This document shows, piece after piece, positions 9,023 to 59,501 of a stretch of DNA of 64,000 bases. The stretch lies in NCBI RefSeq assembly GCF_054482595.1, contig NZ_CM137008.1; one strand, given 5' to 3'. Every line of letters starts with the position of its first letter. Position 1 is the stretch's first letter. Position numbers and translations under genes: made by a program. The notes beneath the pieces are model-generated. The model was not told the DNA's origin and did no database searches. It saw only the letters and a program-made list of their open reading frames with translations.

Positions 9023-9064
9023 GTCATACCACTCGCCTGATTATTTTTAGCTATGTTGGATTTT

Positions 9065-9091
9065 GCCACGGTTTATACCGTGGCTTTTTTT
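9065..9091 (+). terminator. rho-independent terminator after allE
   Basis: Hairpin gccacgg-tttata-ccgtggc followed by a T7 run. Confidence 0.6.
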
Positions 9092-9099
9092 GTAACATT

Positions 9100-9204
9100 G
9101 CCTGATGCGCTTCGCTTATCAGGCCTACATGATCTCTGCAATATATAGAATTTGCGCGATTTTCAGGAAGGATATAGTGCTCATGCAGCATCCGGCATGA
9201 GCAC
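9100..9204. repeat. REP-like palindrome plus a second 27-bp dyad in the allE/glxK convergent gap
   Basis: gcctgatgcgcttcgcttatcaggcctac at 9100-9128; gtgctcatgc...gcatgagcac at 9178-9204. Confidence 0.5.
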
Positions 9205-42269: not shown

Positions 42270-43010
<741 letters not shown>

Positions 43011-43032: not shown

Positions 43033-43375
43033 TTACGCGACCTTTTTTGCACGCTCTTCACGGCGTGCCAAATATTCAGCCACTGTTTCAATCCGTCCCA
43101 ATTCTTCCTGGGTACGCATGTTGTTTTCAACTTCCCAAAGATCAACTGCCGCCTGGAGGTTTAGCCAAAAATCGACTGTGGTATCAAAAACTTTCGCCAG
43201 ACGGAATGCCATTTCAGTGGTGAGTTTACGATTATTATTGATCAGTGTACTGACGTTATTACGATGAACATGCAGCAACTCTGCTAACTCATTGATTTTC
43301 AAAGCGAGCGGTTCCAGATTATTCATAGAGAAGAATATCTCCGGGTGTCGTCGGTTTTCTTGTTGCCTGTTTCAT
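43033..43375 (-). pseudogene. ybaQ: HigA/Xre-like HTH regulator, apparently frameshifted
   Basis: 18-codon ORF from ATG 43375 (MKQATRKPTTPGDILLYE) stops at TAA 43321-43319, overlapping the 97-aa HTH ORF (43326-43033) in the +1 frame. Confidence 0.6.
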
Positions 43376-43512
43376 AGTTTTTAACTGTTGCTTCCCTGTG
43401 AATAGCGATACAAGAACATACTGAATCATACAAACACATTAAACAAGTCCCCAACTCCATTTGCGCCATTCCTCCCCGCGCGCTAGCATGATATTTCACA
43501 AAGGGAGGTCGT

Positions 43513-44307
43513 ATGGATCTGTTGTACCGGGTAAAAACGCTTTGGGCCGCGCTGCGCGGTAATCATTACTCCTGGCCTGCCATCGATATCACCCTCCCCG
43601 GCAATCGCCATTTTCATCTGATTGGCAGTATTCATATGGGTAGCCACGATATGGCTCCCCTGCCCGCCCGTTTGCTCAAAAAGCTCAAAAACGCCGATGC
43701 GCTGATCGTCGAGGCGGATGTTTCCACCAGCGATACGCCTTTTGCTAATTTGCCTGCCTGCGAGGCGCTGGAAGAGCGTATTAGCGAGGAGCAATTACAA
43801 AATCTGCAGCACATTAGCCAGGTGATGGGCATTTCTCCGTCACTCTTTTCTACCCAACCGCTGTGGCAAATCGCGATGGTTCTTCAGGCGACGCAGGCAC
43901 AAAAACTGGGGCTGCGGGCAGAATACGGTATCGATTACCAGTTATTGCAGGCGGCGAAGCAACAACATAAACCCGTGATTGAACTGGAAGGGGCTGAAAA
44001 CCAGATTGCCATGTTGCTCCAGCTCCCTGACAAAGGACTGGCGCTGCTGGACGATACGCTGACCCACTGGCATACCAACGCACGGTTGCTGCAACAAATG
44101 ATGAGCTGGTGGCTGAATGCGCCGCCGCAAAATAATGAAATAACGCTGCCCAATACGTTCAGTCAGTCGCTGTACGATGTGCTGATGCATCAGCGAAATC
44201 TCGCCTGGCGGGATAAATTACGCGCCATGCCGCCGGGGCGATATGTGGTCGCGGTCGGTGCACTACACCTGTATGGAGAAGGGAATTTGCCGCAAATGTT
44301 GCGCTAA
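43513..44307 (+). CDS. ybaP: TraB/GumN-family protein
   Basis: 264-aa ORF; synteny. Confidence 0.88.
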   Translation: MDLLYRVKTLWAALRGNHYSWPAIDITLPGNRHFHLIGSIHMGSHDMAPLPARLLKKLKNADALIVEADVSTSDTPFANLPACEALEERISEEQLQNLQHISQVMGISPSLFSTQPLWQIAMVLQATQAQKLGLRAEYGIDYQLLQAAKQQHKPVIELEGAENQIAMLLQLPDKGLALLDDTLTHWHTNARLLQQMMSWWLNAPPQNNEITLPNTFSQSLYDVLMHQRNLAWRDKLRAMPPGRYVVAVGALHLYGEGNLPQMLR

Positions 44308-44389
44308 AAAAATGGCCAATATCGCTATTGGCCCGTCAAAGAGGAATTTCATTTTTTTATTATTATGCCGTCACTTTAAGCGACGGTGT
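44306..44389 (-). ncRNA. chiX: ChiX (MicM/SroB) Hfq-dependent sRNA
   Basis: Minus strand reads ACACCGUCGCUUAAAGUGACGGCAUAAUAAUAAAAAAAUGAAAUUCCUCUUUGACGGGCCAAUAGCGAUAUUGGCCAUUUUUUU, 84 nt, matching remembered ChiX. Confidence 0.85.
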
Positions 44390-44495
44390 AACTCGATTGT
44401 CGCTCAATCTCACCATCCTGCCAATACTCTTAGGCAAGATGACTCTTTTTTTTGGACCGCCATCAGGCGTATGCTTGCTTCGTTTTTTTGTTTAA

Positions 44496-44990
<495 letters not shown>

Positions 44991-44996
44991 GCATTG

Positions 44997-45025
44997 TGCC
45001 GGATGCGAACATCCGGCACTTTCGG
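44997..45025 (+). terminator. hairpin terminator between convergent ybaK and ushA
   Basis: gtgccggatg-cgaa-catccggcac then TTTCGG. Confidence 0.5.
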
Positions 45026-45026
45026 A

Positions 45027-46679
45027 TTACTGCCAGCTCACCTCACCTTTCGGTTCATAAACACTCACATCCAGCGGCGAGCTTTTCTGGATATACGCTT
45101 TCAGCACTTCGGCATCAATAAAGCCGGTATTCACATAGCCCGGTTTGTTATCAAGGCGCGGATAGCCATCACCGCCGGTGGCATTGAAGTTTAATGTCGC
45201 CATACGGTAAGTTTTCGCTGGATCGACCGGTTCGCCTTTGATTTTAAGGTCGTTCAGTTTGCCGTCTTTCGACACAAAGCTAACGTTGGCAAATTGCGGG
45301 TAGGCACCTGAATCTGGCTTCATCTGCGCGACGGCGGTCAGGTAATCAATCACCTCTTTACCGGTCATGTCGGCATACACCACCACATTGCCGAATGGCT
45401 GCACTTTCAGCACGTTTTTATAGCTGATATCGCCTGCTTCGATAGAATCACGAATTCCGCCTCCGCTCATCACCGCAAAGTCGGCACCAGTGCGATCCAT
45501 TTGTGCTGCCAGAATTAACCGCCCCATATTGGTCTGTACAAAACGCACTTTGTCACGATCGCCTTCCAGACGACCATTGGTTTCGCCTATTTTCACTTCC
45601 AGCTGCGCTTTGCCTTTGTTCTGGAACGGTGATAACAGCGAGATCATTTGCTGGTTTTCAGCGATTTCAGGAGTGTAAAGCACGCGCTCGCTTTTCCCGT
45701 CTTCCCAGGTCACTTTCTTCTTCAGGTTCACCGGAATCAGCTGGTAGTTAACCATTTTCATTTCGCCATTACGAAACTCAAAATCAGCCCGTCCCACGTA
45801 TTTGCCCCACTCATGCGCCTGCACAATCCAGATGCCGTTTTGTTGATCTGGTTTGCATGGCGTACCCGGCACGTAATCGACCTGTTTTTTGTTTTCTGCC
45901 GCCATGCAGACCGGATCTTGCGAGTGACCACCGACGATCATCGCCAGCGATCCGGCAGGCAGCGCGCGTGCCATCTCCACATCGCCCGGTGCGTTAGAGC
46001 CGTGCTCACCATTATCGTAATGCCCCATATGGGTCGCCGCGATAATAATGTCTGGCTTTTCTGTCTGTTGCAGCTCCTGAATCACCAGCTTCGCTTCATC
46101 GGCGGGCTTACGAAATTCGACATCAGTGAAGTATTCCGGGTTACCAATTTTTGCTGTGTCATCGGTTGTCAGCCCAATGACGGCAATTTTCAGATCCTGA
46201 CGCTTAAACAGCGCCCACGGTTTAAACAGGCGCTCGCCAGTACTTTTCTGGTAGATATTCGCGGAAAGCAACGGGAACTTGGCCCACTTTTCCTGCTGGC
46301 GTAATACGGTGAGCGGATTATCAAATTCATGATTACCGATCGCCATCGCGTCATAGCCCACCAGATTCATACCGCGAAAATCAGGTTCGGCATCCTGTAA
46401 GTCAGACTCGGGCACGCCAGTGTTAATGTCGCCACCGGAAAGTAGCAGCACGCTACCGCCTTCAGCCGCAACCTCTTTGCGGATACCATCCACCAGCGTT
46501 TTTTGCGCCGCCAGACCATATTCGCCATATTCATTGCGCCAAAAATGCCCATGATGATCATTGGTATGCAGAACTGTAATTTTGTAGGTTTTATCCTGCT
46601 CATACGCCAGAGCAGTTTCACTCGCCAGTGTAAATGTGGTTAACAGCGCTAACGCCACGCCCCGCTGCAATAATTTCAT
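45027..46679 (-). CDS. ushA: periplasmic UDP-sugar hydrolase / 5'-nucleotidase
   Basis: 550-aa ORF with signal peptide and metallophosphoesterase motifs (DHHGH, GNHEFD). Confidence 0.92.
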   Translation of the reverse strand: MKLLQRGVALALLTTFTLASETALAYEQDKTYKITVLHTNDHHGHFWRNEYGEYGLAAQKTLVDGIRKEVAAEGGSVLLLSGGDINTGVPESDLQDAEPDFRGMNLVGYDAMAIGNHEFDNPLTVLRQQEKWAKFPLLSANIYQKSTGERLFKPWALFKRQDLKIAVIGLTTDDTAKIGNPEYFTDVEFRKPADEAKLVIQELQQTEKPDIIIAATHMGHYDNGEHGSNAPGDVEMARALPAGSLAMIVGGHSQDPVCMAAENKKQVDYVPGTPCKPDQQNGIWIVQAHEWGKYVGRADFEFRNGEMKMVNYQLIPVNLKKKVTWEDGKSERVLYTPEIAENQQMISLLSPFQNKGKAQLEVKIGETNGRLEGDRDKVRFVQTNMGRLILAAQMDRTGADFAVMSGGGIRDSIEAGDISYKNVLKVQPFGNVVVYADMTGKEVIDYLTAVAQMKPDSGAYPQFANVSFVSKDGKLNDLKIKGEPVDPAKTYRMATLNFNATGGDGYPRLDNKPGYVNTGFIDAEVLKAYIQKSSPLDVSVYEPKGEVSWQ

Positions 46680-50040: not shown

Positions 50041-50149
50041 GCCGGATGTAAAATATGAAAAATATGTAGGCATGATAAGACGCGCCAGCGTCGCATCGGG
50101 CATCGAGAGCCAAATGCCAGATGCGGCGTGAACGCCTTATCTGGCCTAC
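50041..50149. repeat. REP/BIME element between convergent ybaL and gsk
   Basis: REP-family palindromes gccggatg...gtaggcatgataagacgcgccagcgtcgcatc...gcggcgtgaacgccttatctggcctac. Confidence 0.7.
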
Positions 50150-57569: not shown

Positions 57570-59501
57570 TCAAATGGGGCGGATACTTTCTTCATCCAGC
57601 TCCGCATCGAAGAACCGACGCAGGGTCTGAATATTATTATCCGCAATAATGGACTCGCGCGCCTGCGCAAGTTTTTCTTCGTATATCGCCTGACGCCACT
57701 CCAGCGGCGTACGCACCGCGGGATTATCATCTTCAACGATAGTCAGTTCAACCGTTGAACCTTTTAACGTGCTCAACGCTTCAGCCAGTTTTTGCTGTGC
57801 ACCGCGGTTGTTCAAATGCCGCTGAGAGGAGCGCAAATGCAGACATACTGCGTTGTCGCTCTCCTCTTTCCAGGCATTTAAGGCCACCTGTTCGACCAGT
57901 TTTGGTAGCGAAAGTTGACTCACCTGTGCCGCCCACGCGTCGCGCTCAATGGCTTCTGCCGCCAGCTTCGCCGCCAGTTCCGGCGTTTTTTCATGTTCCA
58001 GCGCTTTTTTCAGCGCCTTCGGCGTGGCGACCACTTCTTTTTGCTGCATCACTGGAGTGGTAGCCTTCCAGCGATACGCTTCTTTTTTGGCTGGCGCTTT
58101 TTCCAGCGCCGATGGCACCGGACGCGCCTGAACGCGATCGGTGACCGAAGCCAGTCTTTCCAGCGCAGCGTTATTCACCGGCCGCGCGCGGGTAGCGGCT
58201 GCCGGTTCACTCTTTTTTGCTTTGGTTGCTCCCTGCACGCGCTGCAACTGCTGGCGCGCCGCCAGCACCTGGCTGGTGGTTTCCGGGAGCGGTACAGTCG
58301 GTGCCTGCTGCGGCGCTGATTGCGGTTGCGGCGGCACCTGGGTTGGCGTCATTACTGCCGTTGGCGCGACGGGCGCAAAGGACTGGCGTGGCACTTCTGG
58401 CTCAGGCAGAGGCATACGTGGATGGAACGCCAGCGCGCGCAGCAGCGTCATCTCAACGCCCATGCGGCGGTCCGGCGCATACGGTAATTCTTTGCGACCA
58501 ATCAACAGCGTCTGATAGTAAAGCTGAATATCCGTCGGCGGTATGGTGCGCGCCAGTTCACGCATCCGCAGCTCAATGGCGGCCATGTCGTTGCCAAGTG
58601 CAGCAGGCGAAAGTTGTACCATCGCAATACGATGCAACAGGCCGAGCATTTCCACCAGCAACGCTTCCCACTCGATACCACGGGCAGCGGCTTCATTAAT
58701 CAGCGCCATTACGCGCTCGCCGTTGGCCTCGACCATCGCTTCAACCAGCGACAGCGCCTGATCGTCGTCAAGCGTACCCAGCATCGCACTGACTGCCTGG
58801 GTTGAAACCTGGCCGTCACCGCTGGCAATCGCCTGGTCGGTCAGACTTAAGGCATCTCGCAGGCTGCCTTCAGCGGCGCGCGCCAGCAATTGCAACGCCC
58901 GCGGCTCGTGAGCGATATGTTCTTCGTTGAGGATGTGCTCAAGTTGATGGCGAATTTGCTCGACATCCAGCGCCTTGAGATGAAATTGCAAACAGCGCGA
59001 CAAAATCGTCACCGGCAATTTCTGTGGATCGGTCGTCGCCAGCAGAAACTTAACGTGCTCCGGCGGCTCTTCAAGGGTTTTTAACAGTGCGTTAAAGCTG
59101 TGGCGCGACAGCATATGCACTTCGTCGATCAGATAAACTTTGAAACGACCACGCGCCGGAGCGTACTGGACGTTATCCAGCAGGTCGCGGGTATCTTCAA
59201 CTTTGGTGCGCGAGGCGGCGTCGATTTCAATCAGATCGACAAAGCGCCCCTGCTCGATTTCACGACAGTTATCGCACACGCCGCACGGCGTCGCGGTAAT
59301 GCCGGTTTCGCAGTTTAGCCCCTTCGCCAGCAGTCGGGCGATAGAGGTTTTTCCGACGCCACGGGTACCGGAAAAAAGATAAGCATGATGAATACGCCCT
59401 AACGACAAGCCGTTCGCCAGTGCGGTCAGCACATGTTCCTGGCCGACGACGTCAGCAAAGGTTTGTGGGCGCCATTTTCGGGCTAAGACCTGATAACTCA
59501 T
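57570..59501 (-). CDS. dnaX: DNA polymerase III tau subunit (gamma made by -1 frameshift)
   Basis: 643-aa ORF; AAA+ Walker A GTRGVGKTS; internal frameshift signal at 58176-58218. Confidence 0.95.
   Translation of the reverse strand: MSYQVLARKWRPQTFADVVGQEHVLTALANGLSLGRIHHAYLFSGTRGVGKTSIARLLAKGLNCETGITATPCGVCDNCREIEQGRFVDLIEIDAASRTKVEDTRDLLDNVQYAPARGRFKVYLIDEVHMLSRHSFNALLKTLEEPPEHVKFLLATTDPQKLPVTILSRCLQFHLKALDVEQIRHQLEHILNEEHIAHEPRALQLLARAAEGSLRDALSLTDQAIASGDGQVSTQAVSAMLGTLDDDQALSLVEAMVEANGERVMALINEAAARGIEWEALLVEMLGLLHRIAMVQLSPAALGNDMAAIELRMRELARTIPPTDIQLYYQTLLIGRKELPYAPDRRMGVEMTLLRALAFHPRMPLPEPEVPRQSFAPVAPTAVMTPTQVPPQPQSAPQQAPTVPLPETTSQVLAARQQLQRVQGATKAKKSEPAAATRARPVNNAALERLASVTDRVQARPVPSALEKAPAKKEAYRWKATTPVMQQKEVVATPKALKKALEHEKTPELAAKLAAEAIERDAWAAQVSQLSLPKLVEQVALNAWKEESDNAVCLHLRSSQRHLNNRGAQQKLAEALSTLKGSTVELTIVEDDNPAVRTPLEWRQAIYEEKLAQARESIIADNNIQTLRRFFDAELDEESIRPI
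58176..58218 (-). other. dnaX programmed -1 ribosomal frameshift site (slippery heptamer plus stem-loop)
   Basis: Minus strand GCA AAA AAG AGU GAA CCGGCAGCCGCUACCCGCGCGCGGCCGGUGAA; -1 frame reads GAG then UGA. Confidence 0.85.

Follow-up and report, generated by a model that had tools for sequence, protein, structure and literature searches.

The chiX small RNA gene of an Escherichia coli chromosome and its two-nucleotide overlap with the ybaP stop codon

Location and identity of chiX

The window, a 64,000-nt stretch of NCBI RefSeq assembly GCF_054482595.1 (contig NZ_CM137008.1), contains chiX, the gene of an 84-nt sRNA (also named SroB, MicM and RybC; Hfq-dependent according to the literature). 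It is convergent with ybaP, whose stop codon TAA is at 44305–44307, and ybaK is oriented as ybaP and starts 121 nt beyond the chiX transcription start site (TSS). The features of the region are as follows.

43513–44307, plus strand: ybaP, coding sequence of a TraB/GumN family protein of 264 aa (Pfam PF01963 TraB_PrgY_gumN, 148.4 bits; RefSeq annotation)
44306–44307, both strands: shared bases, the AA of the ybaP TAA being the template for the last two U of ChiX
44306–44389, minus strand: chiX, 84 nt (RF00368 match, identity to K-12, fold)
44306–44333, minus strand: intrinsic terminator of chiX, with an 8-bp stem (GGCCAAUA/UAUUGGCC) and GCGA loop at 44333–44314, A at 44313 and U7 at 44312–44306
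44332–44345, minus strand: seed, RNA nt 45–58, UCCUCUUUGACGGG (pairing test)
44346–44367, minus strand: A-rich single-stranded linker, RNA nt 23–44, CAUAAUAAUAAAAAAAUGAAAU (sequence, fold and conservation across genera)
44368–44386, minus strand: 5′ stem-loop of ChiX, RNA nt 4–22, in both the MFE and the centroid fold
44389, minus strand: TSS and RNA start of ChiX (Rfam match and K-12 annotation), 7 nt downstream of the -10 hexamer
44396–44424, minus strand: predicted chiX promoter, with -35 TTGGCA at 44424–44419, a 17-nt spacer and -10 GACAAT at 44401–44396
44464–44489, plus strand: weak terminator-like site, a 5-bp hairpin (CAGGC/GCUUG, 44464–44477) followed by the T-run CUUCGUUUUUUU
44511–44990, plus strand: ybaK, Cys-tRNA(Pro)/Cys-tRNA(Cys) deacylase (Pfam tRNA_edit, 81 bits; RefSeq annotation)

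The initial annotation had named this RNA ChiX and had proposed a covariance-model search as a check. This search returned Rfam RF00368 (sroB = ChiX/MicM/RybC) at 44306–44389 on the minus strand with 82.1 bits, well above the gathering score of 44 (E-value 1.8e-10 for the whole window and 1.1e-12 in a local scan), and the model was covered end to end (positions 1–83 of 83); a permissive Rfam search of 44150–44550 gave no family besides sroB. The junction region (44250–44520) was 100% identical to that of E. coli K-12 MG1655, whose curated record lists ncRNA chiX (b4585) at 507204..507287 (+) and ybaP (b0482) at 507286..508080 (-), with the same 2-nt overlap. The initial placement on the minus strand and across the ybaP stop codon (ORF end 44305–44307, sRNA 44306–44389) agrees with this record, and all the coordinates given initially were retained. 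As described for RF00368, the gene lies between ybaK and ybaP on the opposite strand, which was evident from the ORFs, the Pfam matches and the K-12 annotation. Over 1.7 kb (43400–45100), strain XH990 matched the window at 100% identity and K-12-lineage genomes at about 98.8%.

A 151-bp stretch containing chiX (44290–44440) was found as a single copy in 5422/5426 complete E. coli genomes, with at least 99% identity in 5020 of the 5422. It was also noticed that the 4 remaining genomes had no match to the chiX region, and that 2 of the 5422 matches were on records typed as plasmids. In the PGAP RefSeq record of strain XH990, the DNA identical to 43400–45100 carries ybaP, ybaK and ushA only, and among the records compared a chiX feature was present in the curated K-12 record alone and absent from those annotated by PGAP, as had been anticipated for any ORF-based annotation. 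Two plus-strand ORFs (44243..44527 and 44328..44495) were rejected as protein-coding genes; they are read-through frames of anti-ChiX.

Chance resemblance, in which an ordinary ybaP terminator or intergenic spacer would have been mistaken for an sRNA gene, was refuted and is left with virtually no probability. Nothing was found in its favour, and it is ruled out by 1) the full-length covariance match, 38 bits over the gathering score, 2) the identity to the curated K-12 chiX, 3) a published Term-seq 3′ end with up to 955,394 reads, 4) a conserved promoter, and 5) a terminator directed away from ybaP. The minus strand of 44306–44389 is the chromosomal chiX of E. coli, and nothing contradicts this identity. 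Since ChiX, its position and the ybaP overlap were already known from the curated K-12 annotation and published 3′-end maps, they carry little weight as a discovery; identity, anatomy, target complementarity and conservation were observed directly in this analysis.

Several other elements were seen elsewhere in the window. The copA-ybaQ spacer, about 820 nt here versus 315 nt in K-12, contains seven tandem REP/BIME-type copies at 42324–43007 (101-nt period; Rfam naRNA4, 79–89 bits), and an eighth naRNA4-type copy is located at 50069–50146. ybaQ (HigA-family antitoxin/transcriptional regulator; 43033–43429, minus strand) has a frameshift near 43319–43326, which splits it into ORFs of 36 aa and 97 aa; it is a frameshifted pseudogene according to PGAP in strain XH990 and an intact gene of 113 aa in K-12. 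Rfam matches on the minus strand included the DnaX frameshift element (58173–58237, 96.8 bits), STnc480 (9029–9095, 87.6 bits) and ES036/CssrF (9121–9163, 38.1 bits, barely over its gathering score of 37.6). ybaK and ushA (44990–45027) likewise converge at a tight junction, and one hairpin is located in their 36-nt spacer; in the Term-seq data (PMC7815308), the 3′ end of ushA at K-12 506602 abuts the ybaK stop at 506603 (window 44991/44990).

Anatomy of ChiX and pairing with its targets

In agreement with the RF00368 description of an RNA of about 84 nt with its own promoter and a U-tailed Rho-independent terminator, both elements were found at the two ends of chiX, the promoter at the sequence level. 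A consensus scan of 43300–45100 gave the chiX promoter as the sole sigma-70-like site. The -35 and -10 hexamers and the extended -10 block GCGACAAT were at least 95% conserved in 69 Enterobacteriaceae-type loci among the matches listed, and so were the linker, the terminator stem and the U-run, but not the 5′ hairpin. The terminator stem had one compensatory pair, A-U to G-C, in 4/26 genera among the matches listed. ChiX was predicted to fold with -24.1 kcal/mol (z = -3.9 versus dinucleotide shuffles).

The 5′ hairpin was too variable for in-register alignment, and folding of each sequence was used instead of alignment-based covariation. Among the 106 unique ChiX sequences of the matches listed, 91 distinct 5′ segments were present, a helix run of at least 5 bp was kept in 92/106, and the mean MFE of the segment was -10.4 kcal/mol versus -4.6 kcal/mol for shuffles. 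In this hairpin, therefore, the sequence changes and the helix stays.

For the mapped 3′ end, the Hfq class, the repression of chiP and the decoys, we rely on the literature. Term-seq (Adams et al. 2021, PMC7815308, supplementary file 1) placed the dominant 3′ end of ChiX at K-12 507287 (+), which corresponds to window 44306, with 445,279 to 955,394 reads in three growth conditions, and classed the site as "primary chiX, antisense ybaP" (PMC7815308). A Rho termination region antisense to ybaP was reported at K-12 507468 (+) (PMC7815308, supplementary file 2), approximately window 44125 on the minus strand and 181 nt past the ChiX end (Rho score 3.71, p = 4e-10); some transcription thus seems to pass the ChiX terminator and to be stopped by Rho within anti-ybaP. 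ChiX has been assigned to the Class II sRNAs, whose binding mode involves the distal and the proximal face of Hfq; it competed for Hfq with both A27 (oligo-A) and U18 (oligo-U) and was among the strongest competitors (PMC6239178). The sequence prerequisites of this class, an A-rich linker and a U7 tail, are both there, and the linker is likely to be the site for the distal face of Hfq, as judged from its sequence.

Since chiP (ybfM) and the chb operon lie outside the window, pairing was computed against the K-12 targets. ChiX nt 45–56 (UCCUCUUUGACG) are perfectly complementary to a 12-nt segment (CGUCAAAGAGGA) of the chiP Shine-Dalgarno region, 8 nt upstream of the AUG, whereas nt 47–58 and nt 38–44 pair with the chbB-chbC spacer over 12 and 7 bp, respectively. 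The duplex with chiP had -38.8 kcal/mol versus -28.7 for shuffled targets (reached by 7/500 shuffles), and that with the chbBC spacer -36.1 kcal/mol versus -21.5 (reached by 1/500 shuffles). The two pairings by which RF00368 is described, of the seed with the chiP (ybfM) ribosome-binding site and of the chbB-chbC decoy, were thus both found with the K-12 targets. According to PMC7815308, which cites the original studies, ChiX represses chiP, and compensatory mutations have proven the pairing involved (Figueroa-Bossi 2009; Overgaard 2009); the pairing raises Rho-dependent termination in chiP (Bossi 2012). ChiX is in turn sponged and destabilised by two RNAs, that of the chbBC spacer and ChiZ, which is a piece of the chiP 5′ UTR (PMC7815308).

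By these lines, transcription of chiX starts at its own conserved, predicted sigma-70 promoter and ends at the Rho-independent terminator, and the U7 tail and the A-rich linker would load the RNA onto Hfq as in Class II sRNAs. The seed, which is single-stranded, pairs with the chiP Shine-Dalgarno region and keeps the chitoporin silent, until RNA of the chbB-chbC spacer (and ChiZ) pairs with ChiX and removes it.

The ybaP/chiX junction in the window and in other species

The plus strand at the junction reads ...CGC TAA AAA AAT GGCCAATATCGCTATTGGCC CGTCAAAGAGGAATTTCATTTTTTTATTATTATGCCGTCACTTTAAGCGACGGTGT..., and the T of the ybaP stop codon (44305) is outside ChiX. The initial annotation had the U-run begin within the TAA; the overlap is as described, and when read along the RNA the U-run ends there ("begins" holds only in plus-strand coordinates). 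It had also described the 3′ ends of sRNA and mRNA as antisense over their terminal nucleotides, which is right in that the ybaP coding sequence overlaps ChiX and an over-reading in that the overlapping end is that of the coding sequence, not a mapped mRNA end. Of the 3′-end mapping it had suggested for both transcripts, the published Term-seq supplies the ChiX end at 44306, with none on the ybaP strand.

On the plus strand, the ChiX hairpin is followed by CGUCAAAGAGG/CGTCAAAGAGG and no T-run, and the terminator scan called a terminator on the minus strand only; the U-tract after the hairpin on both strands that marks a bidirectional intrinsic terminator was thus found on one strand. The same scan gave no convincing intrinsic terminator on the ybaP strand between the ybaP stop and ybaK. 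The site at 44464–44489 was the sole terminator-like one in this interval; the block was 70–95% conserved in the 69 loci among the matches listed, and it could instead be part of the ybaK promoter or leader. Published Term-seq (PMC7815308) lists no ybaP-strand 3′ end in this region, and in the literature on ChiX, ybaP and ybaK we found neither an anti-ChiX RNA nor a mapped 3′ end of ybaP reported. Because no intrinsic terminator follows the ybaP stop and no ybaP-strand end is listed by Term-seq, ybaP transcripts probably run further into anti-ChiX, well beyond two bases. The transcripts themselves would overlap by 2 nt as a minimum, and probably by far more, since the mRNA must pass its stop codon and no T-run follows the hairpin.

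RIL-seq tables (PMC10954441) contain Hfq-bound fragments from K-12 507215–507289 on the minus strand (approximately window 44306–44380, plus strand), labelled ybaP.EST3UTR. They occur as the first chimera partner over the length of ChiX, e.g., in 540 chimeras with ArcZ, and were re-labelled as ChiX by their authors (PMC10954441). The signal of these ybaP-strand fragments is about 0.2% of that of ChiX, which would fit either a strand artefact or genuine anti-ChiX RNA.

To survey the junction, one genome per species was scanned with AAATTCCTCTTTGACNGGCC, which returned at least 120 loci. The pattern required an intact seed and the sample is biased accordingly; the invariance of the seed (106/106) was discarded as evidence for this reason. 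One match, in a Lindowbacteria MAG (L060), was rejected as a chance match with no T-run, and an incomplete locus (L025) was set aside, leaving 118 genuine loci from other species among the matches listed, in nearly all of which the order was ybaK-chiX-ybaP. The exception was Proteus (L065, L091), with the order ushA, ybaK, ybaP, a 396-aa gene, chiX and copA, and with ybaK and ybaP 35 nt apart. The junction could be measured in 115 loci, with the following classes among the matches listed.

87/115 loci (35 genus-level labels): TAA sharing 2 nt with the end of the T-run, the arrangement of the window
4/115 loci (Pantoea): TGA with a 1-nt overlap
4/115 loci (L041, L048, L066, L094): TAA changed to CAA, ybaP extending 17 nt into the terminator stem
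1/115 loci (L026, Phytobacter massiliensis): ybaP frame running through all of chiX, 87-nt overlap
19/115 loci (Hafnia, Rouxiella, Buttiauxella, several Pantoea and Erwinia, others): gap of 3–230 nt

The largest class included, among the matches listed, Escherichia, Salmonella, Citrobacter, Klebsiella, Enterobacter, Serratia, Yersinia and Rahnella; its 87 loci are not independent events, since the 115 loci share phylogeny. In these 87 loci among the matches listed, the YbaP tail past the conserved motif LYGEGNLP-x-(L/M)L had 1–5 residues, and 46 distinct C-terminal 16-mers were present; the spacing between chiX and the start of ybaK, taken as a control, had 27 values (119–260 nt) in the same loci. 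The exact 2-nt overlap of the ybaP TAA with the ChiX U-tract in 87/115 loci among the matches listed, despite a varying YbaP tail, is the new observation here.

In the four loci with CAA, YbaP gains QKNGQ (tail ...QKNGQ*), encoded antisense to the ChiX U-tract and the terminator stem. The missed TAA of P. massiliensis is possibly a homopolymer sequencing error. Ten gaps of at least 64 nt among the matches listed were filled by a repeat which we take to be ERIC-like or by CAGTTGAG tandem repeats. Insertions directly after the TAA were found in Buttiauxella (L046, L064, L122), in Rahnella (L040) and in Erwinia/Pantoea-type loci (L067, L075, L100), and consisted of the ERIC-like repeat or of CAGTTGAG/CCGTTGAG unit arrays. 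A search of the ten gaps for a dedicated ybaP terminator gave none that was convincing among the matches listed, with one weak terminator-like hairpin flagged in a Pantoea locus (L049).

Reasons for the conserved overlap and comparison with known systems

For the reason for the overlap and its conservation, we infer that joint constraint on the shared bases is the most likely one. The two A of the TAA would be held by the need of ChiX for its U-tract, in termination and Hfq binding, and the T by the need of ybaP for a stop codon. The plus-strand frames past the ybaP stop are all open into anti-ChiX, that of the TAA for 5 to about 25 codons and the other two for about 60–74, so that only an insertion leaving ybaP with an in-frame stop can separate the two genes. 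In favour of joint constraint, the overlap is identical in 87/115 loci among the matches listed, though the YbaP tails and the chiX-ybaK spacing vary, and the exceptions fit it, being either stop loss with a short extension or insertions of repeats just after the TAA. The account as a whole, with the identity of chiX, a promoter-to-terminator sRNA that silences chiP and an overlap most likely arising from joint constraint, is almost certainly correct.

Conservation alone cannot tell such a passive double constraint from selection for functional coupling, in which read-through from ybaP, or from ybaP-ybaK, would carry a perfect anti-ChiX and the tight junction would itself be selected. The anti-ChiX RNA might then be a cis-encoded sponge that titrates or destroys ChiX, or the abundant ChiX might trigger cleavage of the ybaP/ybaK mRNA. 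We consider such coupling improbable. It would fit with the hairpin lacking a T-run on the ybaP strand, where the nearest terminator-like site is 160 nt on, just before ybaK, with a dedicated ybaP terminator gained in no gapped lineage among the matches listed, and with Proteus, in which chiX lies elsewhere and the close spacing of ybaP and ybaK points to a unit of these two genes as the ancestral state; in Campylobacter, a trans-acting sRNA opposed by a cis-encoded antagonist provides a precedent (PMC8687705). The ybaP-strand RIL-seq fragments at K-12 507215–507289 also point this way, but they make up about 0.2% of the ChiX signal and may just as well be a strand artefact of a hyper-abundant RNA, Term-seq has no ybaP-strand 3′ end in the region, reports of an anti-ChiX RNA were not found in the literature, and double constraint fully accounts for the conservation. 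That the 2-nt overlap is the visible edge of a full-length sense/antisense pair, with the ybaP.EST3UTR fragments being real anti-ChiX RNA, is likewise improbable.

The ChiX hairpin might also stop ybaP transcription, possibly with the aid of polymerases that start at the very active chiX promoter and collide with it head-on; the overlap of the two RNAs would then be confined to the hairpin. This hairpin has the same stability on either strand and lies 6 nt past the ybaP stop, ybaP has no other terminator nearby, the neighbouring ushA/ybaK junction is similarly tight, ushA mRNA ending right next to the ybaK stop, and collision-assisted bidirectional termination is proposed for convergent E. coli genes in a preprint (bioRxiv 10.1101/2022.10.23.513370). 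However, CGUCAAAGAGG follows the hairpin on the ybaP strand, where the U-tract, the defining feature of an intrinsic terminator, is absent, and a ybaP-strand 3′ end is not reported there. We regard a shared terminator as having a low probability, and the strict label of bidirectional terminator was rejected on account of the missing U-tract. The conservation of the stop codon and the U-tail is a modest addition to what was known of ChiX and is best explained by ordinary constraint of this joint kind.

The PGAP records for identical DNA omit chiX, so that a major Hfq-bound regulator is lost from pipeline annotations. In much of the Enterobacterales, the ybaP stop codon and the functional U-tail of ChiX use the same bases, which makes ybaP/ChiX a clear case of nucleotides under the constraint of two genes at once; in practice, editing the 3′ end of ybaP or deleting ybaP also alters ChiX, and read labels such as ybaP.EST3UTR in interaction datasets can hide or mimic ChiX signal. 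If coupling were true, ybaP transcription would provide a cis-encoded sponge of ChiX, which ranks among the most abundant Hfq-bound sRNAs; alternatively, ChiX would be a cis-acting repressor of ybaP/ybaK.

In comparison with ChiX of K-12 (b4585, RF00368), no base differs here in the 84 nt, the promoter or the flanks, the neighbours ybaK/ybaP, the 2-nt overlap with the ybaP stop, the seed and the terminator are the same, and no difference was found within the sRNA itself. Bidirectional intrinsic terminators resemble the junction in having convergent genes with a single hairpin between them and essentially no spacer, but they have a symmetric A-tract and U-tract, whereas the ChiX hairpin on the ybaP strand has an A-tract before it and no U after it. 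In a non-contiguous operon or excludon, a gene is embedded antisense between co-transcribed genes; chiX is likewise on the opposite strand between the co-oriented ybaP and ybaK (adjacent in Proteus), although the flanking genes of such operons are co-transcribed and ybaP/ybaK are known here as co-oriented only. As in Campylobacter CJnc180/CJnc190, as far as described in PMC8687705, a trans-acting sRNA potentially faces a fully complementary RNA from the opposite strand. Unlike that pair, the anti-ChiX RNA is hypothetical, and the known antagonists of ChiX, the chbBC spacer and ChiZ, are trans-encoded.
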